From assembly GCA_041664925.1 (NCBI GenBank), contig JBAYJV010000001.1, positions 293,262 through 357,261 on the forward strand: 64,000 nt of DNA. Reading direction: 5' to 3'. Under the pieces are notes generated by a model. That model saw only the letters and a list, made by a program, of their open reading frames with translations, searched no databases and was not told the origin of the DNA. The position numbers and the translations under genes were made by a program. This DNA is from Minisyncoccota bacterium. Its GTDB lineage: Bacteria; Patescibacteriota; Minisyncoccia; JBAYJV01. Every line of letters starts with the position of its first letter. The stretch's first letter is position 1. This document shows positions 41,705 to 56,147 of the stretch, in pieces.

Positions 41705-41904
41705 AAAATAAGGGATATAATGAATAAATGAGACACAAGAAATAAGCAGGATGGATAAATTTTTTTCTTTTATCCTCTTAACCCCTTTATATCCTGTATT
41801 TCTTATTGTATAACAAATAAAAAATAAGGCAACAAAACAATTTTAAAAACAAAAGTCAACTTTTCAGGTGAAAAATTGACTTAGAATAATAAAAACCTAA
41901 AAAC

Positions 41905-43467
41905 CTAATCCAAGTCACACAACATATAGGCTATTGCCTTTGCTGCCAAGTCCATCGCTTCTTCGTCAAAGTTTGCTTCTGGAGTATGTAATTTGTAACC
42001 GCTGTCACCCTTTTTTCTTGCTCCCAAAGTTAATCTTGTTGATGGAATTTCTTTGCTAAAATAATTAGCATCATCTGGAACAAGCACAGGTTCAGTCTGA
42101 TAGGTGATGTTTTTATCGAATTTATCAATGGATGACTTCAGGACATTAGTTAGTCGGGGATCTCCTCTGAATGATGATATGCCCATTTTGTGGTGAAATT
42201 CGTATTGTAGTCCCGGATAATCTTTTGCAACTTCAGAAACTTTTCTTATTAGTGCTTCTTTAATGATTTTTCGCAAAGTTTTTCCTTTAACATCCGGTTC
42301 AAGAGACCACACCTTGCCAAAATTAACCGGGTTGGGCTTTGTATCTGACTTGGTCGGTTTTTCTCTTTTCCAGAAAGGAATTTTTTCTGCCGACACTGTC
42401 TCGCCCGTCCAATCATCACCAAAAAGATGTCCACTAATTTTTAATCCTTGAACATTTTGGGGGCGGTGTTGTTCGTCTTGTTCTTCTAAACGGAGAAGTT
42501 CTAAGATTCTCCCAACCTGTTCATTTATATAAGCATTTTTATCTTTAATTGACCAATCCTGTCCTTCTTTTGACGATATAGTTTCGCTAATTTCACCATA
42601 AATTTTATCAACTGCAATCAATATTTTTTTGATCTCTTGGTCAACTTTTTCAAAAAACATTTTTTGGACAGCAGGATCAGTATCTGGATCGGTAATTTCA
42701 ACAGCCCACCTATCTGAAGCGGCTAACACAGGCCTTCCTTTTTCAAATTCTCCTTCGGCTAAAACAGTTCCTGTTTCAGAAAAATCATTATAATGCCAAC
42801 TAACGAGACCATCTGCGCTAAGCATGTTTCTTATTTCTTCAGGGAGTTCTTTATTTCTGTTAGCTTCGTGAATAATTTTCGCCGCGCCTGTTTCTACGGC
42901 AGTTGATGATTCCTCGTTACCTCTAGCAACGCAGATAACATCGAAACCAAGGCCGACTTCATCATTAATTTTTGTTAAATACCTTGTTATACCTTCTCCG
43001 GTTGCTGAATTTAAGTCATGACCACAACCATGAAATGCGTCAGTGTTTTCAGATGAATATGGTAGACCAGTTTTTTCTTGCATCGGAAGAGCGTCCATGT
43101 CCCATGTTAGAACATATTTTTTTCTAGGTTGTCCTTCTGTTGATTTTTTGCCGCGCAAAATACCAACAACGCCAGCAATGCCTTTCTTTTTTTCATCTTC
43201 GCTGATTTTATAATCTGTTTCAAGAATCCAAGCTTCTAAGCCCAAGTTTTTTAGATTTTCAAGAGTTGTTTCGGCTGTCCTTTTAATCTCAAAACCGGTT
43301 TCTGGATATTGATGAATATCTCGTCTTCTTTCAACCATTTTCTGATAAGTTTCGGGCGCTTCGCTTTCTATTAAACTAGCAATTTTTTCTAACTCTGCCT
43401 GTCTTTCCGGAGTTAATTCTTTTTCTGTTTTTTCAGAAGGACTAAATTGTTCATTTTTGATACCCAT
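41905..43467 (-). CDS. M20-family amidohydrolase/peptidase-like protein
   Basis: HGCGHD motif (M20D HACGHD-like), 520 aa. Confidence 0.45.
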   Translation of the reverse strand: MGIKNEQFSPSEKTEKELTPERQAELEKIASLIESEAPETYQKMVERRRDIHQYPETGFEIKRTAETTLENLKNLGLEAWILETDYKISEDEKKKGIAGVVGILRGKKSTEGQPRKKYVLTWDMDALPMQEKTGLPYSSENTDAFHGCGHDLNSATGEGITRYLTKINDEVGLGFDVICVARGNEESSTAVETGAAKIIHEANRNKELPEEIRNMLSADGLVSWHYNDFSETGTVLAEGEFEKGRPVLAASDRWAVEITDPDTDPAVQKMFFEKVDQEIKKILIAVDKIYGEISETISSKEGQDWSIKDKNAYINEQVGRILELLRLEEQDEQHRPQNVQGLKISGHLFGDDWTGETVSAEKIPFWKREKPTKSDTKPNPVNFGKVWSLEPDVKGKTLRKIIKEALIRKVSEVAKDYPGLQYEFHHKMGISSFRGDPRLTNVLKSSIDKFDKNITYQTEPVLVPDDANYFSKEIPSTRLTLGARKKGDSGYKLHTPEANFDEEAMDLAAKAIAYMLCDLD

Positions 43468-43475
43468 AAATTTAA

Positions 43476-44420
43476 TTAATCAACTTTTACATTTAAAAGG
43501 TAAGTATAGAGGCCCATTGATGCGTAGACCCATTCTCTTAAAAAGTCTTTTACAATAACCCGAGAATCTTTATCGACTTCTTTTTCAACGGTTAGGCGAC
43601 CATCTGTCAGAATTCTTGGAGTTACATATTGAATAAAAGCATCTGGTTTCACGAGTTCTAGATCTTTTTCCGTAAAGATTTTAACCAATTTGTTGTATTT
43701 TTCCACTAATCCTGGATCTTCTCCTGGTTGGGGTAATCCTTCCATGATGATTAAAGAGTCTACTTTGGATATAAAATCTTCAAGCTTTCCTCTGATTAAT
43801 TGGCCGCCGGTTTTTTTAACAAAATCTTTAATATGAGGAGGCGTTTCGAACTCGTCAATCACAGGATCTTCATACATCGTTACGCCCATAATGCTTAACA
43901 TTTTAATCATTGCCTTAATGGGGCGCGAAGACTTAGTCATGCCGTAAAATCCTACAGTTGATTTTTTGAAATCAAAATTTCTACGAGAAAGAGAATAAAT
44001 CATAGTTAAAGAACCGTTTGTGTGTTCATCGCTACCGCACATAGCATTCACTAAAGGAATAGGGAAATCAGCAGAAAAGTCGTCTAAATTCAAGCTTTTG
44101 TGCCTAACAGCCATAATGTCACAAGCAGGAGCATACGATCTCATAAAATCCTCTATATCTTCTTCTCCTGATGCAACATAGGTTCCAGCGGTTCCACTAA
44201 TTCCAACAAAGCCGCCGCCCAATCTGATTATCGCTGACTGTAAAATTGTTGATGTGCGTGTGCTTTCTTGAAAAAATAATGTAGCGAGAACTTTTCCCGG
44301 GCAGAGATGGGTAAAATCTTTACCTTTTTCAATACCTTCTTGAAAAATCTTAGCGCGCCTACAGACCTCTAAATAATCTTCTTTAGTAAAATCTTCCGCT
44401 TTGATTAAATGTTTGGGCAT
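43476..44420 (-). CDS. divergent aspartate/ornithine carbamoyltransferase-fold protein
   Basis: FFQESTRTS (STRTR-like), DIMAVRH, PLVNAMCGSDEHTNG (HPxQ region altered); 314 aa. Confidence 0.4.
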   Translation of the reverse strand: MPKHLIKAEDFTKEDYLEVCRRAKIFQEGIEKGKDFTHLCPGKVLATLFFQESTRTSTILQSAIIRLGGGFVGISGTAGTYVASGEEDIEDFMRSYAPACDIMAVRHKSLNLDDFSADFPIPLVNAMCGSDEHTNGSLTMIYSLSRRNFDFKKSTVGFYGMTKSSRPIKAMIKMLSIMGVTMYEDPVIDEFETPPHIKDFVKKTGGQLIRGKLEDFISKVDSLIIMEGLPQPGEDPGLVEKYNKLVKIFTEKDLELVKPDAFIQYVTPRILTDGRLTVEKEVDKDSRVIVKDFLREWVYASMGLYTYLLNVKVD

Positions 44421-44462: not shown

Positions 44463-45401
44463 TTATAAAGTTGTAATTGGTCGAGCTTGGAGAATATAAA
44501 GCGTATTATTTTCAAGCGCCCATTCAATATCTTGCGGCTTTCCGTAATGATTTTCAATATTGATAGCGATTTTCGCCAATTCCTTGATTTTTTCATTTGA
44601 TAATTTCTGTTTATCTTTTTTATCGTCAGGTACTGCTCTTTCTTCTGTGTCAAAATCAGGTTTTCTGACAATCATTTTTGTTTGTTCAGATGTGCTGACA
44701 TCAATAAAATTGAGAGTGCTTTTTTCAATAACATAACTATCGGGCGTAATACTTCCCTGAACTAAAGCTTCTCCCAATCCCCAACAAGCCTCCGCAATCA
44801 TTTGATCTTTATCTCGAGTGACTGGATGGACCGTAAAACAAACGCCGGCAACTTCAGAATCAATCATTTTTTGGACTACTACTGCCACAGAAACCAATTT
44901 TCCTTTATAACCACGCTCGAATCTGTAACATAGTGCTCTTGGAGAAAACAGCGAAGCCCAACATTTTTTTACGCTTTCTAAAACATTATTTTTGTTTATA
45001 AAAAGATAGCTTTCAAGTTGGCCTGCCCAAGCGTCAATAGCGGAATCTTCGGCAGTAGCTGACGACCTGATGGCAACATATTCTGTGTCAAGATTATCAA
45101 AATTAATTAAAATTTCTTCTTTAATATTCTCAGGAATGCTTCCATTAGAAACGATATTATGAATTTCTTCTGAACAGGATTCTATGGCTGAAGAATCCTG
45201 AGTATCAACCTTGTCCAATAATTTATCAATTTTTGTTTTAATATCGTTATCTTTTAAAAATTTATCAAAAGCAGAAGCAAGGACAACAAAACCCGGAGGA
45301 ACAGGGATGCCCGCCTGAGTCATTTCGCCCAGAGACGCTCCTTTTCCACCGGCAATTCCTACATCATTTTTTGAAATTTCTCTAAAATTCTTGATATACA
45401 T
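44463..45401 (-). CDS. stand-alone PPDK_N / PEP-synthase N-terminal ATP-grasp nucleotide-binding domain protein
   Basis: VGIAGGKGASLGEM, GIPVPPGFVV, VAIRSSATAEDS, GVCFTVHP, DIEWA...LQARPITTL; no swivel or TIM-barrel domain. Confidence 0.8.
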   Translation of the reverse strand: MYIKNFREISKNDVGIAGGKGASLGEMTQAGIPVPPGFVVLASAFDKFLKDNDIKTKIDKLLDKVDTQDSSAIESCSEEIHNIVSNGSIPENIKEEILINFDNLDTEYVAIRSSATAEDSAIDAWAGQLESYLFINKNNVLESVKKCWASLFSPRALCYRFERGYKGKLVSVAVVVQKMIDSEVAGVCFTVHPVTRDKDQMIAEACWGLGEALVQGSITPDSYVIEKSTLNFIDVSTSEQTKMIVRKPDFDTEERAVPDDKKDKQKLSNEKIKELAKIAINIENHYGKPQDIEWALENNTLYILQARPITTL

Positions 45402-45422: not shown

Positions 45423-46298
45423 CTATACACTCCATCTTTTCTTTCTTTCTTCTGTCTCTTTCTCGAGTTCTTCAATTATTTTTTTAAGATCCTCTTCGTC
45501 AAATTCTCTTTCCTGATCTCTATAGCTAATTTTAACCCTTCCATTTTCAATATCAATTTTATGTCCCTCTAGATAATTTCTGGCACCTCCTATTTCATCA
45601 AGACCGGCAGCATTAATCGGCATGCCCAAAAGTTTCATTACCAAAAAATCAGTATTTGCATTATGGGATATGCCAAACAATTTTATTTCGTTATTAGGAA
45701 AATGACCCTGGTTGATTTCCATCATGCTCATGAGCCACCTTATCTGTTTAATGGTAACTTGTTCAGGGGAACCGAAGAAAGTAGTATCAAATTCGGCCAC
45801 TGGTGCCTCGGGATTTTCTTTTAGCATTTCCTGCCTAAGTTGGGCTAATTCTTCAGGAGACCAGGCGGCCCATGTTTTTACGGCAAAACCTTCGTTTCCA
45901 AATATCTGCCGACTTTTTTCAAATAATTTTGCTCCTCTTGGATCACCGGTCTTTGGTATTCCTATAAGCGAAGAATAAGATAATCCTTTAATTAAAACTT
46001 TTTCTTTCGTGCTTGAATCAATTTTTTGTATTTCTCCAATATCATGAACATCTAAAATTCTATATCCTTGACCGGCCTCATTGAACAAGCTAATTAATGT
46101 TTCTTCAAAAATATCCCTTGTTTTCTGGGTTCTTTCTATATTTGATGGCATAAAAGCAATGACTGTGCCCTCAGGATAGGTTTTTATTTCTTCAAAAAGT
46201 TCTTTGGCACGGTCTCTAATTTTTTCTCTACCATCTTCTGAAATATGGCCGGTTTCATCTTTTTCCCCATGGCGCAAAACCTCAAATGATTGTTTCAT
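45423..46298 (-). CDS. histidine phosphatase superfamily (PGAM/SixA branch) protein
   Basis: VLRHGEK (RHG), SNIERTQKT (second Arg), ISHNANTDF (second His). Confidence 0.6.
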   Translation of the reverse strand: MKQSFEVLRHGEKDETGHISEDGREKIRDRAKELFEEIKTYPEGTVIAFMPSNIERTQKTRDIFEETLISLFNEAGQGYRILDVHDIGEIQKIDSSTKEKVLIKGLSYSSLIGIPKTGDPRGAKLFEKSRQIFGNEGFAVKTWAAWSPEELAQLRQEMLKENPEAPVAEFDTTFFGSPEQVTIKQIRWLMSMMEINQGHFPNNEIKLFGISHNANTDFLVMKLLGMPINAAGLDEIGGARNYLEGHKIDIENGRVKISYRDQEREFDEEDLKKIIEELEKETEERKKRWSV

Positions 46299-46321: not shown

Positions 46322-47734
46322 TTATGTTTTCTCTAATATTTTAATCATACCCTTATTCGCATCGACTTCAACCAAATCACCATCTTTAAGTATTTGAGTT
46401 GCAATTTTTGTACCAATAATACAGGGGATTCCTAATTCTCTACTAACTATAGCTGCATGACACAATATTCCACCTTCATCTGTGATAATGGCACCGGATC
46501 GCTTAATCACTCCTATAAGATTAGGCGTTGTCATGGTTGTAACCAAAATTTCTCCATTCTGTAATTCTTTAGCCATTTCTGTGCTTAGGATTATTCTGAC
46601 TCGTCCTTTGTATGTGCCAGAATTAGCTACTGTTCCCTTGATTTCTTCAAAATAGGTTTTTTCTTCTTCAAACGGAAGTTCACTATACGAAACAATTCCA
46701 CCTATAAGGATATTTGTGAAGTATTGTTTTCGTTTTATTATATCAATTTCAGTTTTGTTTTTAAAAAGATTATCGATTTCTAATACATTATACCAAACGA
46801 TATCCTCAAATTTAATATTGAATTTATTGGCAATTGCCCTAAGTAACGATCTAATGCGGTATTGTCCTAGTGTAAGCACTGTAATTCTGTTCATTCTGAA
46901 AATCATATAATCTTGGAGTAATTCGGATATCTCTATAATGTCTTTTGGCAGGGAACTTATAGATTCTATGTACTTGGCTTTTTTCTCTTCTTGATTTGCC
47001 GTTAAATTATTTAGTTCTTCGGCAGGATTTTTAATATTTTCTATTGTTTTTAAGAAATAATCATCGTCATATGGTTCGCTCAATAGGTGAGTGGTAAGAC
47101 CCATATATCCAAAATTCGCACTATGTTGTTTTATTTGCTTATCAATATTTACTCCTGATCGTTTAAGGATAGCTATCTCTAGTAAATCTTTTTGTTCTTG
47201 AAAAAAATCACTATTTTCCTGAACAGTAGTTAGAACTCTAAAAATTTTATCTTGTTTTATTTGACTAGCGTCTTTTAAATAAATATTTATTTTATTCTTA
47301 AGCCCTTCCGTTAATATTTGTTCTGGAGCGAAAACGGTATGCATAAAAGGAGAGAAGGAATAAAAATCTTTCTTAAAAAGATCCCAATATTTCAATAACT
47401 TACTACTACTCACACTCATATTTGATTTACTGATGACCTCCGTAGTATTGAGAATCTTTTTTAACCTTTTCTTACCTTCCAGCAAATGTTCTTTCATAAA
47501 TTCTAAGGGGTTTTTGTTTGCCAAAAAAGCCTCTTTGAGATTTCGCTTGCTCTCTAAGTTCTGAAGAATAGAACAAAGCTTCTTTTTGTCTTCTACTCTA
47601 GACACAATATCAAAATTAACACCAACTAATTTTGGTATTTCTTTACTCATTCCTTGGCTAATTATGTCTAAAGTTAGGCCTGTTAGAGGCCTAGAAACTA
47701 CCTTAAACCACTTAGAATCATCGTATTTTTCCAT
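46322..47734 (-). CDS. PEP-utilizing-enzyme mobile (phosphohistidine swivel) domain protein, paralog A (likely start MEKYDD at 47734; track ORF extends to 47827)
   Basis: C-terminal GGILCHAAIVSRELGIPCIIGT...DGDLVEVDA; divergent ~370-aa N-terminal region. Confidence 0.65.
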   Translation of the reverse strand: MEKYDDSKWFKVVSRPLTGLTLDIISQGMSKEIPKLVGVNFDIVSRVEDKKKLCSILQNLESKRNLKEAFLANKNPLEFMKEHLLEGKKRLKKILNTTEVISKSNMSVSSSKLLKYWDLFKKDFYSFSPFMHTVFAPEQILTEGLKNKINIYLKDASQIKQDKIFRVLTTVQENSDFFQEQKDLLEIAILKRSGVNIDKQIKQHSANFGYMGLTTHLLSEPYDDDYFLKTIENIKNPAEELNNLTANQEEKKAKYIESISSLPKDIIEISELLQDYMIFRMNRITVLTLGQYRIRSLLRAIANKFNIKFEDIVWYNVLEIDNLFKNKTEIDIIKRKQYFTNILIGGIVSYSELPFEEEKTYFEEIKGTVANSGTYKGRVRIILSTEMAKELQNGEILVTTMTTPNLIGVIKRSGAIITDEGGILCHAAIVSRELGIPCIIGTKIATQILKDGDLVEVDANKGMIKILEKT

Positions 47735-49157
47735 ATTTTCTATGAATAATTTTAATTTTACCCTTATTTGCATCGACTTCAACCAAATCACCATCTTTAA
47801 GTATTTGAGTTGCAATTTTTGTACCAATAATACAGGGAATATTAAACTCTCTGCTGATTATAGCTGCATGACACAATATTCCACCTTCATCTGTGATAAT
47901 GGCACCAGCCTTTTTAACAGCGCCAATTAAGTTAGCCGTAGTCATTGATGCAACCAAAACCTCTCCTTTTTTGAATGATTTAATCTTATCAAGACCTGTT
48001 ATTATTTTTACGTAACCAGTGTATTTTCCTGTCTTTGCTATTGATCCTGAAAATTCATTTCCGGAGACATTATCAGAAGTTTTTTCAACTTCTTCATAAT
48101 AGATTTTCCCATTTATTAAACTGGATACGAAAGATTTTTTTCTGGCTTCAACATTAGTCTTTTTAGGACGAATAAAAAGATTATCTATTTCTGGTACTGT
48201 GTACCAAATAATATCTTCAAATTTGATATCAAATCTTTTACCTATCTCTCTGGTAAGTTTTTTAACATAGTGTAATCCGACATTCATTCCTTCAGCTCTT
48301 TCCGTTCTAAAGATTGTATATTCCTGAAGAAGCTCAGCGAGTTTTACAATATCTTTTGGTATAGATTTTGCGAAACTATTGTATCCAGAAAGTATTTCTT
48401 TTTTATTTTTTTCTAATTTGATTAGTAAGTCTTTTGGATTTTTTATCTCATTTATGATTTCAAGAAAATGTTTTCTATCATACGGTTCGCTTGAAAGATG
48501 AGCGGTTATCCCCATATTTCCGAATTTTTTAATATGATTCTTTAATCTGTTCTCTATGTTTTTATTTTTTCTTATAAGAATACCTATTTCCAAAAGATCT
48601 TTCTGTTCTAGGTAGAAAATACTATCTTTTTTAATTGTTGTTAACAGCCTAAAGTAGTTTTCTTTATCTTTTGGAGAACTTTTCTTAAAATAAGCATCAA
48701 TCTTACTTTTCAGTCTGTTTGTAAGTATTTCTTCTGGAATAAAAGGGATATGAATAAAAGGACAGAAAGCGCAATAAGTTTTTTTAAACAGAATCCAATA
48801 ATTTTCTAGTTTTTCAATACTAACGTTCAGATTGTAACTATAAATTTTTTTTCCTACCCGTAGAGTTTTTTTTGTTCTTTTTCTTCCGATTTTAAGATGT
48901 TCTCTAAAAAAACTATAACCATTTTCGTGATTTTCAAAGATTTTTACCAATCTTTCTCTGCTTTCTTTCCCTTGATAGAGGGATAGGTCATTATCGTTTA
49001 TTGATTTTTCACATTTTAAATCTAATGTTGTGCCAGTAAGTCTTGGCATCTCTTCGTTTATGCCTTGAGCAACCAAACTAAAAGTTAAAATCGTGGCTGG
49101 TCGCGCAACCACCTTAATCCATTCCATATTTTCTGTAGGATTAATTTTCTTTTTCAC
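47718..49157 (-). CDS. PEP-utilizing-enzyme mobile domain protein, paralog B
   Basis: C-terminal GGILCHAAIISREFNIPCIIGT...DGDLVEVDA; 3' 150 nt about 92% identical to paralog A. Confidence 0.65.
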   Translation of the reverse strand: MKKKINPTENMEWIKVVARPATILTFSLVAQGINEEMPRLTGTTLDLKCEKSINDNDLSLYQGKESRERLVKIFENHENGYSFFREHLKIGRKRTKKTLRVGKKIYSYNLNVSIEKLENYWILFKKTYCAFCPFIHIPFIPEEILTNRLKSKIDAYFKKSSPKDKENYFRLLTTIKKDSIFYLEQKDLLEIGILIRKNKNIENRLKNHIKKFGNMGITAHLSSEPYDRKHFLEIINEIKNPKDLLIKLEKNKKEILSGYNSFAKSIPKDIVKLAELLQEYTIFRTERAEGMNVGLHYVKKLTREIGKRFDIKFEDIIWYTVPEIDNLFIRPKKTNVEARKKSFVSSLINGKIYYEEVEKTSDNVSGNEFSGSIAKTGKYTGYVKIITGLDKIKSFKKGEVLVASMTTANLIGAVKKAGAIITDEGGILCHAAIISREFNIPCIIGTKIATQILKDGDLVEVDANKGKIKIIHRKYGKIR

Positions 49158-50682
49158 TTTTTAATATTTTTACAACACCTCTATCTGCATCAACTTCAAC
49201 AAGATCGCCATCTTTAATGACTTTTGTAGCGTTTTTTGTGCCAATAATGCAGGGTTTTTTGAGCTCTCTGGCAATAATAGCAGCATGGCAAGTCAATCCT
49301 CCTTCATCAGTTACAATTGCTCCGGCCAATCGCATTACAGGCACGAAATCAACTGTAGTTGATTGAGCTATAAGAATTTCTCCTTTTTCCATTTTATTCA
49401 TTTCAGCGGTTGATAAAATTAACCTAGCAATGCCTCGAATTTTTCCTTTAGCGCCGATCTGGCCCGTAATTGTATCTATTTTTTCTGTTTCTTTTTTAAA
49501 TTGATCGAAATTGCTTTTTACATAATCTATTTCTTCTTGAACAAGCTCCCTGATACCATATTCAACGGAAAGGATTAAATTATATCCATTTTTTCTTTGC
49601 TGGTATTTTGTTTTTAACCCTTCTAATGATACTTTGCCCAAAATGCCATCTTTTATTTCTTCTGGCGAAAGACAATAAACCTGTTGCCAATTTTCCAAAT
49701 CAAGAATTTTTGCGATTGTATCAAAAAATGGTCTTACCAAGAAACCAACGTGAGAAAAAATACTCTTTCGATATTCAGCCAAAACAGTCCCCAGGCGCAT
49801 TGCTAAAATTATATTTTTTAATTTTTCAGACATTGGTAAATCACCAAATAATTTATCGCGTTGCGATAATATTTCTTTTCTGTGTGTTTTTTTAGCAGTG
49901 ATTTGTTCTTGGCAATCTCCATTATTGATGTATTTTTTAATGTCTTCGATAAATTTTGGTTCAGGAATAGGTTCGTCGATAAAATTTACCGTTATCCACG
50001 CTGAATCATTCATTAATTGATTGAGTTTTTCTTTAAAAGGAGTACCAGATAAGATGCTATTAAAATTGTTTCTGGTTTTTTTCATTTCTTCTTGTATCCA
50101 AGAAGATAATTCAAGTACGGCAATTTCTTGTTTAAAAGCTGGGGTTTCTTCATCCGGCGTAACCAATATATTAATATTTGCATCAATTTCACTAGGATCA
50201 ATATTTTTTAGTTCTTCTTTGGCAATAATAGGAGCTAACCTAGACAAATCCCAATTTAGCATTGATGTGATCATTAACCCCAAGGACAGAGCAATGTGCG
50301 ATTCGCAATATTGATCTAATTTTTTGATTAAATCATTTTTATCAGAAATCTCTTTGATTTTATTTAATTCATAAGCAATCTTAAGGAATTGCTCGCCTCG
50401 ATCTAAGAATTTTTGCTTGAGATTTTTACCTAAAAAACCATAAGGATCTTTAATAGATTCTGTTATTAAAAAATCAAGAACCTTTTCGTCGGAAATTTTA
50501 GTATCAAAAATAGCGCAACGGGTTCCTTCAGAAATCCATAATTCTTCCAGTGGCGGGACCTTCCAACTGTCAGCTCCATACGTAAAACCAACAGCATCTA
50601 AGTAACGCTGAAAAAATGCAAAATTGCGCGTAAGCTGATAATTCCAATTTTCTGGACTAAAAATTTTTAAATCTATAGGCAT
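49141..50682 (-). CDS. PEP-utilizing-enzyme mobile domain protein, paralog C
   Basis: C-terminal GGLTCHAAIIARELKKPCIIGT...DGDLVEVDA. Confidence 0.65.
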   Translation of the reverse strand: MPIDLKIFSPENWNYQLTRNFAFFQRYLDAVGFTYGADSWKVPPLEELWISEGTRCAIFDTKISDEKVLDFLITESIKDPYGFLGKNLKQKFLDRGEQFLKIAYELNKIKEISDKNDLIKKLDQYCESHIALSLGLMITSMLNWDLSRLAPIIAKEELKNIDPSEIDANINILVTPDEETPAFKQEIAVLELSSWIQEEMKKTRNNFNSILSGTPFKEKLNQLMNDSAWITVNFIDEPIPEPKFIEDIKKYINNGDCQEQITAKKTHRKEILSQRDKLFGDLPMSEKLKNIILAMRLGTVLAEYRKSIFSHVGFLVRPFFDTIAKILDLENWQQVYCLSPEEIKDGILGKVSLEGLKTKYQQRKNGYNLILSVEYGIRELVQEEIDYVKSNFDQFKKETEKIDTITGQIGAKGKIRGIARLILSTAEMNKMEKGEILIAQSTTVDFVPVMRLAGAIVTDEGGLTCHAAIIARELKKPCIIGTKNATKVIKDGDLVEVDADRGVVKILKSEKEN

Positions 50683-53565: not shown

Positions 53566-55393
53566 TTAAACTGGTCTTTAATTGGTCAATTTTGGCACCA
53601 AGATCTTGTTGGGTAAACATGTCTTTTCCGTGAACTTGGGCTTCTTCGGTCAATATCAAGTTGGATCCTATTTGTGTAGGTGAAGGAATTGAATTTACTT
53701 TGAAAATAATTTGTTTAACTGAACTTGTTTGTCCCGTGCCAGCCTTAATTTCTTTGATTTGCCAAAGCAATTGGCCTGTCAAAGGATCAAAGGTTATATT
53801 ATTTTCTGGGGGCCACCAAGTATTTTCCCAATAAACTCCAACGGGAAGTTGCGAAGAAACGGTTACGTTCTCTAAATCGTTGTAATAATTAAGAAGTTGC
53901 CAGGAAATAAGATAGGTAGTTTTTTCTCCTGACTTTGGTGGATAAGGACCAGAAGCTGTGAATGGCTGCTGAGTATTCTGATCTAAGATAGCTCCCTTAG
54001 CAATTAAAACAGAGTTTAATTTTACTGAAGTCTGCGAGCTATTTTCTAGCTGAATACCGGAAAGTTCTGGAGGAACCATATTAGGCAATATACTTGCTCT
54101 AGCGGTTAATATAAAATTCTTATCATTATAAGATTCTATTGGAACGCTTTTTTTGATGCTTATCTTAAACTTAGTACTACCAGCCTCAAATGGTCCTAAA
54201 ATAGCCAATTGCGAAATGCGGCGACTGTCCCACATAATTTTTTTCTCTCTTTCAATGTATATGCCTTGGTTTTCTGGGATTATACTGGCTGGGTCAGAGT
54301 CAAAAATATTACCGTCTAGAACCACAGATAAAACAAGATCTCTTAGGGTTGAATCAGTAGTGTTATTAAAATTAACAATAAATTCTATATCTGATCCTAG
54401 ATTAACAACATTGAGACTACTTAAGTTAGTTGTTTGAATGCTAATATTGACAGGAGCGGGGGTCAAAGAAATTGCCGAGAACGCTTGAGAATAAACCTGG
54501 TATTGATCATTGGCATCTTTCATTTCAATGACGGCAGTCAGGTTAATGACGTCTAGTCGTTGAGTTAAGACACCAGTAACCTTGAATTCTTTTTCTTCCG
54601 ATGGGTTGATTTGATCAATAATCCATGTGTTGTTAGCAATGTCTGGGTTTGTTGGAGTGTAACTCTTAGGACTAAATCCGTTTGGATAATTAATTTTAAA
54701 ACGAATATCTCTATATGTGTCTTCTGACTTATTCGAAAAATTGATCGTATAAGTAATGTCTTTATTGAGAGTTACAATTTTTGGTTCATCAATAACAATT
54801 TTCAATGGGGAAGATACTATGTCAACAGCAAAATCAGTTTCCTTCTTTAGTTCTGAGCTGATTCTGGAAGGCGTATATTTTAAAGTTACTCTTACCACTC
54901 CTTTGTATTCTTCGGGACCGAAAATTTTAACATAAGAAGAAACAGTTTTTTGTTTATCTCCAGCTAGGCGACCGATTTCTAAAACATCTTGACTGTCCGG
55001 TCTTTGAGGATTTTGTAGCTGTGATCCCTTTGGGTATTCGACAAACAATCGACAATCTTCTATGGCCGAACCATTGCCATTTTTTACTAAGAAATCGTAT
55101 TTAAGAAATGCCCCAGATTGGATTTTTTGAGAACCGTCTACTTGAATAGAAATACGATCCTGACTAAATGAAGTGCGATGACCTAGCCATGAAATAGCAA
55201 TGCCAAGCAATATTATGACTATCAAAGAAGAAGAAATAATTTTTAACCATTTTTTTCTTTTTTGATTAAAAAATGGTTCTTTTGGTGGCAGTTCCTTTCT
55301 TTTTTGATCGATATTATAATCTAGTCGCTTGGTCAATCCACTATCGACCTCTGGTCGGTAAATTCCTTTTTTGAGATCATCCAATGATGACAT
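53552..55393 (-). CDS. large membrane-anchored extracytoplasmic repeat-domain protein, unknown function
   Basis: N-terminal TM helix after basic segment; beta-rich Thr/Ser/Asn-rich body, probable repeated Ig-like/DUF11-type domains. Confidence 0.4.
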   Translation of the reverse strand: MSSLDDLKKGIYRPEVDSGLTKRLDYNIDQKRKELPPKEPFFNQKRKKWLKIISSSLIVIILLGIAISWLGHRTSFSQDRISIQVDGSQKIQSGAFLKYDFLVKNGNGSAIEDCRLFVEYPKGSQLQNPQRPDSQDVLEIGRLAGDKQKTVSSYVKIFGPEEYKGVVRVTLKYTPSRISSELKKETDFAVDIVSSPLKIVIDEPKIVTLNKDITYTINFSNKSEDTYRDIRFKINYPNGFSPKSYTPTNPDIANNTWIIDQINPSEEKEFKVTGVLTQRLDVINLTAVIEMKDANDQYQVYSQAFSAISLTPAPVNISIQTTNLSSLNVVNLGSDIEFIVNFNNTTDSTLRDLVLSVVLDGNIFDSDPASIIPENQGIYIEREKKIMWDSRRISQLAILGPFEAGSTKFKISIKKSVPIESYNDKNFILTARASILPNMVPPELSGIQLENSSQTSVKLNSVLIAKGAILDQNTQQPFTASGPYPPKSGEKTTYLISWQLLNYYNDLENVTVSSQLPVGVYWENTWWPPENNITFDPLTGQLLWQIKEIKAGTGQTSSVKQIIFKVNSIPSPTQIGSNLILTEEAQVHGKDMFTQQDLGAKIDQLKTSLSVER

Positions 55394-55394
55394 A

Positions 55395-56147
55395 TTAGTT
55401 GTTTTTGAGAAGTAATGATTTAACTGGCAAATAACTCTTAGGAAGACTAATTCCCGATGAATATTCCAAATAGTTATTGGAAAATTCGAATATTTTTTTC
55501 AGACCATCTTCTTTAATAGTAGTTTTTTTTAAATAACTAAACGATTTTTTTTGAATCAGACGCAAGAAATTTAATTCTTTTTGATCAATAACGACTGATT
55601 TCTTATTTTTACCACTAACATTTATTAGAGATTGCGACAGTCCCGTTTTAAAATTAAAAGAGAAATTCTTTGTCGTTTCCCTTCCAGAGATACTTAAATT
55701 GGGAAAATAGCCAAGATAAAAAGCTAATTTTAAAGAAAAATAAGTCAAAATCAATAGACAGGTTTTATTATCAGGATGCTTTCTTATTAGCGACAACGCC
55801 GATACCAGAAGAAGCAATATTTTTCTATCAGAGATTCTTTCTTCAATTAGATTATCGATCAAATCCACTAGGTAGAAAGAAACAAATTGTGCCAGAGATG
55901 ATTTTTTTGGGTAAAAATCATTCAAAAGTTCAGCGCCAGTTATTACAGGTTCTCCGCTCGAAGAAACAGCAATAATTTGACTATAAGAGAAAGGAGTAAG
56001 GGCAGATTTCAAACGGGCTTCATTCCTATTTAGTCCTTTAGCAAGATAAATAACTTTTCCAAAATTAAGCGTGTAAGCTGTAATATAAGTATTTTTTCCC
56101 TCTACTGATCTGTTTTTTAAAATAAGAGCTTTTGTTTTAAAGTGCAT
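55395..56147 (-). CDS. recO: DNA repair protein RecO-like
   Basis: N-terminal OB-fold pattern KALILKNRSVEGKNTYITAYT..GKVIYLAKG, 250 aa. Confidence 0.55.
   Translation of the reverse strand: MHFKTKALILKNRSVEGKNTYITAYTLNFGKVIYLAKGLNRNEARLKSALTPFSYSQIIAVSSSGEPVITGAELLNDFYPKKSSLAQFVSFYLVDLIDNLIEERISDRKILLLLVSALSLIRKHPDNKTCLLILTYFSLKLAFYLGYFPNLSISGRETTKNFSFNFKTGLSQSLINVSGKNKKSVVIDQKELNFLRLIQKKSFSYLKKTTIKEDGLKKIFEFSNNYLEYSSGISLPKSYLPVKSLLLKNN

Follow-up and report, generated by a model that had tools for sequence, protein, structure and literature searches.

Why do two adjacent genes that have diverged along most of their length end in almost the same DNA? The question is raised by a tandem array of three paralogous genes, C, B and A, all on the minus strand of the stretch analysed here (the window), which comprises 64,000 nucleotides (nt) of contig JBAYJV010000001.1 (positions 293,262 to 357,261; assembly GCA_041664925.1) from a Minisyncoccota bacterium. 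Each of the three codes for a protein that ends in a swivel domain with a catalytic His. Our results indicate that the near-identical 3' ends of A and B very probably arose by recent intrachromosomal gene conversion between these adjacent paralogs. A preliminary description of this DNA had already proposed recent recombination between A and B, and the proposal is supported by a collapse of synonymous divergence, by sharp edges, by permutation (P<5e-5) and by the absence of a signal between either gene and C.

The near-identical 3' ends of paralogs A and B

The 3' ends of A and B form a direct repeat with a constant offset of 1411 nt. The genes and the segments of the repeat are listed below.

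46322..47734, minus strand: paralog A, open reading frame (ORF) of 470 amino acids (aa), PF00391 at 82.6 bits
47718..49157, minus strand: paralog B, 479 aa from GTG 49157, same layout as A, catalytic His430, PF00391 at 79.8 bits
49141..50682, minus strand: paralog C, 513 aa, same layout as A and B, PF00391 at 89.0 bits; outside the putative conversion and used as the internal control
46340..46495, minus strand: copy in A of the putative converted tract (about 156 nt), from residue G414 to about K465
47751..47906, minus strand: putative converted tract, B copy, partner of A 46340..46495
A 46448..46495 = B 47859..47906, minus strand: perfect block of 48 nt encoding GAIITDEGGILCHAAI, A residues G414-I429, catalytic His included
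A 46427..46447 and B 47838..47858, minus strand: apparently unconverted patch of 21 nt with 9/21 mismatches, separating the two blocks
A 46359..46426 = B 47770..47837, minus strand: perfect block of 68 nt encoding PCIIGTKIATQILKDGDLVEVDA, A residues P437-A459
49162..49325, minus strand: corresponding stretch of C, with 71% identity with A and with B; it serves as the unconverted reference for the domain

The start of A (ATG 47734) was picked by family alignment and sequence; a longer ORF beginning at a TTG extends into B. For B, one gene caller favoured an alternative start (ATG 49127), which gives 469 aa.

Nucleotide identity between A and B is 144/156 over the tract and 138/150 (92.0%) over 46346..46495, as against 55% upstream, and the edge is abrupt, the change occurring inside one codon. 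In A the tract contains the TDEGG loop, the catalytic His426 (codon 46459..46457) and the C-terminal half of the swivel domain. These values agree with the preliminary description as regards the identity of the last 150 nt or so (about 92%), the identity of C over the tract (about 70%) and a 47-nt identical block at 46449..46495, which lies inside the perfect block of 48 nt. Two other figures had to be corrected. A perfect block of 77 nt had been reported at 46359..46435, but the actual run is 68 nt long and position 46427 is the first of the nine mismatches of the patch. The protein identity of A and B, given as about 30%, is in fact 47% for the complete proteins and 42% for the part N-terminal to the tract, 28-30% being the value for A or B compared with C.

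The patch corresponds to A residues 430-436 and reads VSRELGI in A and ISREFNI in B. The Ser, Glu and Ile codons differ synonymously, and amino-acid replacements are seen at V/I, L/F and G/N; the synonymous differences mean that the patch has diverged as much as the remaining gene. The N-terminal half of the swivel domain also appears unconverted, with 44% amino-acid and 60% nucleotide identity between A and B. Since this half was left out and the seven codons after the catalytic His were spared, the swivel domain was not homogenised as a whole, contrary to what had been supposed; only its C-terminal half is affected, and that half is interrupted by the patch.

Statistical support for an exchange

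Synonymous divergence was measured in Nei-Gojobori windows over the codon alignment. The proportion of synonymous differences (pS) between A and B was about 0.66 over the whole gene pair, corresponding to a synonymous divergence (dS) of about 1.6, with many windows saturated. It lay between 0.5 and 0.9 in every window upstream of the tract and between 0.23 and 0.26 in the last 47 codons, with zero differences within both perfect blocks.

Codon choice gave the same picture. At identical degenerate amino acids, the codon is the same in A and B in 44/49 cases in the tail and in 77/168 upstream, whereas the tails of the control pairs A-C and B-C, despite encoding nearly the same peptide, agree in only 22/39 and 23/39 cases, respectively. 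A count of 44/49 has a binomial probability of 1.4e-10 if the rate is that of the gene itself (p=0.46) and of 2e-6 if it is that of the A-C and B-C tails (p=0.59).

A Sawyer-type test, in which the A-B differences were permuted 20,000 times over the whole gene and, separately, over the last 100 codons (the swivel domain), was then applied. Permuted data gave runs of up to 36 nt when the whole gene was used and up to 48 nt when only the swivel domain was, against the observed A-B runs of 68 and 48 nt, and in neither setting did any of the permutations attain the observed runs (P<5e-5). The same test was not significant for A-C and B-C, whose longest exact match to C is 10-12 nt. The synonymous profile, the codon choice and the permutation test together reject a uniform dS along A and B; the drop at the 3' end that the preliminary description had tied to recombination is present.

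Agreement among assemblies

A 350-kb ENA contig assembled with megahit at k141 (L004) matches the window at 100% identity over 13.4 kb around the array, and a 208-kb JGI/NCBI contig (L001/L002) matches it at 99.94% over that same stretch; a 5.1-kb Logan contig assembled at k=31 (L003) is likewise 100% identical to the window. The seven substitutions and one indel that separate the window from the JGI/NCBI contig all lie outside A, B and C. The three assemblies thus carry the same sequence, which answers the concern, raised at the outset, about a collapsed repeat. The Logan contig stops at 47877, after exactly 30 nt of the 48-nt block in B; a k=31 de Bruijn graph must branch at this position if the block is present in the reads in two contexts. 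Neither perfect block, at 68 and 48 nt, is as long as a typical short read or as k=141, and both copies have an intact reading frame, distinct flanks and a distinct internal patch. An assembly artefact is thus very unlikely as the source of the identity.

Comparison of the window with the 99.94%-identical contig, that of GCA_041671265.1, showed clustered differences, with four single-nucleotide polymorphisms in 115 nt (44144..44258, in an OTCase-like gene), three in 10 nt (41773..41782) and one 1-nt indel at 53936, the other 13 kb or so being identical. These clusters look like short recombination patches imported between strains.

Encoded proteins and their presumed partner

PF00391 (PEP-utilizers mobile/swivel domain), C-terminal in each case, is the one Pfam domain of A, B and C, with the scores listed above against a cutoff of 23.1 bits. 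The motif GGxx[CS]HAAI is found as GGILCHAAI or GGLTCHAAI and places the catalytic His at position 426 of A and 430 of B. An AlphaFold2 model of A, built from a 14-sequence family alignment, had a mean pLDDT of 88, and its top PDB matches were structures of the Listeria rifampin phosphotransferase (RPH), 5FBU, 5FBT and 5HV1 (E of about 1e-14, TMq 0.57). The match spans the helical substrate domain and the swivel domain, and the family profile aligns with RPH residues 594-866. By fold model and profile, A, B and C are HpeH-like proteins, with a predicted N-terminal substrate domain that resembles the rifampin-binding domain of RPH, followed by the His swivel domain.

Two more specific assignments were rejected. 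As RPH, the three proteins score 69, 44 and 63 bits against an equivalog cutoff of 999 (NF041857 / NF000283), and a different gene carries the ATP-grasp domain. For PEP synthase (TIGR01418, cutoff 739.75) their scores are 110, 103 and 110 bits, and they have no PEP/pyruvate-binding domain.

44463..45401, minus strand: ATP-grasp (PPDK_N) gene, 312 aa, PF01326 at 339.9 bits, in one strand run with A, B and C

This ORF has no other Pfam match at E<=0.01 beyond PF01326. In the whole 64 kb there are exactly three ORFs with a swivel domain and a single PPDK_N ORF, and the product of the latter is presumed to be an HpeI/PpsB-like partner common to A, B and C. Judging from homology, the four proteins may form a two-component small-molecule dikinase that would act by phospho-His transfer. 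The earlier suggestion of one shared partner is thus consistent with the gene content, while the adaptive reason attached to it, docking on that partner, is not needed, as purifying selection suffices.

Recurrence in related arrays

The swivel-subunit family is abundant in bacteria of the candidate phyla radiation (CPR) and in DPANN archaea. A scan of a genome collection returned 79 loci. At least two swivel units are present in 42 of them, the largest tandem array having nine (L005), and none of the loci contains a second PPDK_N ORF.

Long exact runs in swivel DNA were confined to pairs from the same locus, where they reached 92, 62, 42, 41, 35, 32, 32 and 32 nt, while among about 1470 between-locus pairs they never exceeded the 20-24-nt bin. 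The N-terminal parts of the long-run pairs are only about 40% identical in nucleotides and, as in the window, the runs lie in the half between the His and the C terminus. By permutation, 18/297 same-locus pairs were significant at P<=0.001 and 38/297 at P<=0.01, compared with 0/300 and 2/300 between-locus controls, respectively.

Every array has its own identical sequence; the swivel DNA of the window matches that of the 79 other loci by at most 24 nt, and Rfam gave zero matches across the window. These three results exclude a conserved nucleotide element.

The effect on the protein sequences is small. For 137/150 units of multi-copy loci, the best swivel match at the protein level lies in another genome. 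At matched N-terminal identity, swivel protein identity for same-locus and between-locus pairs is 57.5 vs 55.4%, 57.6 vs 56.3% and, in a bin of n=8, 65.3 vs 57.3%. Concerted evolution of the whole domain across the family is not supported, given the negative best-match analysis and the small excess of identity. This weak homogenisation at the amino-acid level indicates that conversion is sporadic. A family-wide protection of the patch was also considered and ruled out, since exact blocks in L005 and L013 cross the equivalent codons.

Some of these loci have a striking layout. L005 (411..13674 of CAZAGY010000007.1) holds nine swivel paralogs in 14 kb, with conversion-like exact runs of 92, 35, 26 and 25 nt, and has no PPDK_N gene within the DNA stretch examined. 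In the Woesearchaeota contig JAFGGS010000004.1 (L013, 2..9755), an uninterrupted ORF of 3251 aa contains eight substrate-domain and swivel units. L015 (4925..10916, 1997 aa) and L049 (5534..11621, 2029 aa) each encode one PPDK_N followed by four units, all fused.

Origin of the tract

On the simplest reading, gene conversion between A and B proceeded as follows. Purifying selection would keep the C-terminal half of the swivel domain similar among old duplicates, and this retained similarity would now and then permit a short homologous exchange between misaligned copies. Non-reciprocal recombination would then replace about 156 nt of one copy, comprising the catalytic-His loop and the C-terminal half of the swivel domain, and leave the 21-nt patch just past the His unconverted. 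Conversion would be restricted to this stretch because it is the sole part of the old duplicates kept similar enough for recombination. The exchanges are probably sporadic and near-neutral. The patch could result from a discontinuous heteroduplex or repair tract, from two tracts, or from repeated conversion in which patch-spanning tracts were purged by selection; selection of this kind could act against conversion of the paralog-specific residues L434-G435 in A and F-N in B.

Several observations weigh against this explanation or limit its reach. In a search of 5.8 billion proteins, the closest non-self homolog of A was only 46% identical and no sister species with orthologs of both A and B was found; since the databases searched hold no orthologous A/B pair, the donor, the direction and the date of the exchange are not demonstrable phylogenetically. 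The permutation test is blind to site-to-site constraint, and its between-locus control is mildly inflated at P<=0.05 (21/300), with no inflation at 0.001. The evidence for authenticity consists of assembled contigs, not reads, and the three assemblies may come from related samples. Finally, one simple tract does not explain everything, given the unconverted patch.

Other searches bore on the same points. The nearest outside homologs that were checked (P0009, P0012 and P0006) are single-copy, with no orthologous A/B pair. In the patch, A and B differ from each other and from C, and a 32-nt core of the block had 0 exact matches in metagenome_contigs. A hybrid protein joining B to A was absent from the 90% clusters of A and B, which contained start-codon variants only, and all the assemblies carry the full array.

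Single-copy outside homologs of A occur at L084 1019..3223, L086 2144..4373 and L085 4597..7299. Two of them are divergently oriented beside a TrmB-family regulator, and one lies between a PPDK_N gene of 318 aa and an acylphosphatase gene.

Four other explanations for the identity were weighed against gene conversion as a near-neutral process. Metagenome-assembled genomes were the source of the DNA and repeats are a classic origin of chimeras, so that a collapsed or chimeric repeat had to be considered; it is nevertheless scarcely credible, as three assemblers or datasets (megahit k141 at ENA, JGI/NCBI and Logan k=31) concur, the blocks are shorter than typical reads and than k=141, both copies stay in frame with flanks and a patch of their own, and the Logan contig breaks where a true two-context repeat would force it to. 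Selection acting on the nucleotides themselves, through an embedded RNA or regulatory element or through extreme codon constraint, would require no recombination, and the stretch does encode the most conserved motif of the family in an AT-rich genome with biased codons. The chance of it appears minimal, however, because C, with nearly the same peptide, has runs of no more than 10-12 nt and 56-59% same-codon use, because other genomes have at most 24 nt in common with the blocks of the window and Rfam returned no match, and because other arrays have different blocks. A recent duplication of the whole gene, after which the N-terminal module would have diverged very fast and the tail not yet, would fit the adjacency of A and B and the fact that they are mutually closest (47-48%, compared with 46% for the best outside homolog). 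It is contradicted by the synonymous sites upstream, which are saturated (pS of 0.5-0.9), since positive selection on the protein cannot saturate such sites; the identity edge also falls within one codon, and we consider this duplication most improbable.

The remaining alternative accepts the conversion and holds that it was adaptive, being selected so that the three swivel domains dock on one ATP-grasp subunit, with the patch protected as the part that matches the substrate domain. The window has one PPDK_N gene for three swivel genes, the related loci have at most one PPDK_N ORF for up to nine swivel units, and in some (L015 and L049) the units are fused to a single PPDK_N. The synonymous and non-synonymous differences of the patch between the perfect blocks are also those expected if patch-spanning tracts were purged, and, when N-terminal identity is matched, swivel domains resemble each other slightly more within a locus than between loci. 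That amino-acid effect is tiny, though (57.5 vs 55.4% and 57.6 vs 56.3%, larger in the n=8 bin only), and 137/150 units have their best match in the swivel domain of another genome. Moreover, C has the same partner yet is unconverted, and the exact blocks of the converted pairs in L005 and L013 pass through the equivalent of the patch. As the swivel domain is already 55-57% identical across unrelated genomes, docking compatibility needs no conversion, and we regard adaptive docking as unlikely. A broader form is somewhat more doubtful still: the CPR and DPANN arrays, with up to nine substrate/swivel subunits and some polyproteins of 2000-3250 aa, would all feed from one ATP-grasp, with recurrent conversions in the His half selectively maintained for partner compatibility and the near-His patch protected as a module-specific determinant. 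If it were true, the arrays would be a modular kinase system of one engine and many adaptors, with an interface policed by recombination.

Neighbouring genes

At both junctions of the array (47718..47734 and 49141..49157), the start codon of the downstream gene is located 17 nt before the upstream stop, and these overlaps suggest a conserved arrangement and translational coupling. On the 3' side of A and on the same strand are four genes: the 291-aa ORF, the PPDK_N gene, the OTCase-like gene and the M20 peptidase gene.

45423..46298, minus strand: ORF of 291 aa between A and the ATP-grasp gene
41905..44420, minus strand: OTCase-like gene and M20 peptidase gene, after the dikinase genes
55395..56147, minus strand: RecO gene (precomputed Pfam: RecO_N and RecO_C), some 5 kb away from the array

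Searches with the 291-aa ORF gave no match in Pfam, even at E<=10, or among PDB sequences. Visual inspection shows VLRHGEKDETGH near its N terminus and GISHN further on, which recall the RHG and SH motifs of histidine phosphatases.

In the OTCase-like gene, the carbamoyl-P-binding domain alone was detected. The OTCase-like and M20 pair also lies within the swivel array of an Uhrbacteria locus (L071 2922..5257), which hints at a conserved functional link with the dikinase genes. The RecO gene means that a RecFOR-type recombination pathway is encoded, at least in part, in the window.

Consequences for the use of these sequences

As an example of domain-restricted conversion, the A/B pair is clean, well controlled and firmly established at the level of the sequence, and it comes from an uncultured Paceibacterota genome; its interest is modest. 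Phylogenies or dS dating of the paralogs must leave out the last 55 codons or so. Short-k assemblies break at the 68- and 48-nt repeats, as one Logan contig does. Crossing-over between these direct repeats would delete 1411 nt, which comprise the last codons of B and the entire N-terminal module of A, and would leave a hybrid of the body of B and the tail of A. It is therefore A's module that would vary in copy number, by deletion or duplication together with those last codons of B, and not paralog B, which the preliminary description had suggested. The context may outweigh the conversion, with three substrate subunits per ATP-grasp in the window and large tandem or fused arrays across CPR and DPANN.

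Comparison with known systems

Literature searches turned up no account of these arrays, nor of conversion in this family. Interlocus gene conversion and concerted evolution have been documented in bacterial paralogs, such as tufA/tufB, mtrA and the rRNA operons (Wang & Chen 2018, PMC6053082), and the cases are enriched for genes with products in the same complex (PMC6053082). Compared with these, the tract described here covers about 156 nt of 1.4-kb genes, the rest of which is saturated, and it is interrupted. The family-wide effect is sporadic, not long-lasting and spread over whole genes, and the dikinase family is unmentioned in that paper. Gene conversion at this locus is thus a partial, domain-restricted and interrupted case of a process already known for prokaryotic paralogs.

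In HpeHI, PpsAB (phenylphosphate synthase) and CreHI, the ATP-grasp subunit (HpeI/PpsB) is encoded apart from the RPH-like substrate and swivel subunit (HpeH/PpsA) (PMC12167813). The system of the window resembles them in its separate ATP-grasp gene and in having GGxx[CS]HAAI less than 50 residues from the C terminus. It differs in that there are three alternative HpeH-like subunits, and up to nine in related loci, per single ATP-grasp gene; in addition, the subunits are shorter (about 470 aa), occur in genomes of CPR and DPANN and have no aromatic-catabolism neighbours.

The RPH structures 5FBT, 5FBU and 5HV1 share with A the fold over the substrate and swivel domains, and with the family a profile over residues 594-866, whereas RPH is one chain of about 865 aa that includes the ATP-grasp, and A is only 15-16% identical to it in the fold alignment. 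With PEP synthase and pyruvate phosphate dikinase, the locus has in common PF00391 in A, B and C and PPDK_N in a neighbouring gene, but the three paralogs, unlike those enzymes, are without the PEP/pyruvate-binding domain.

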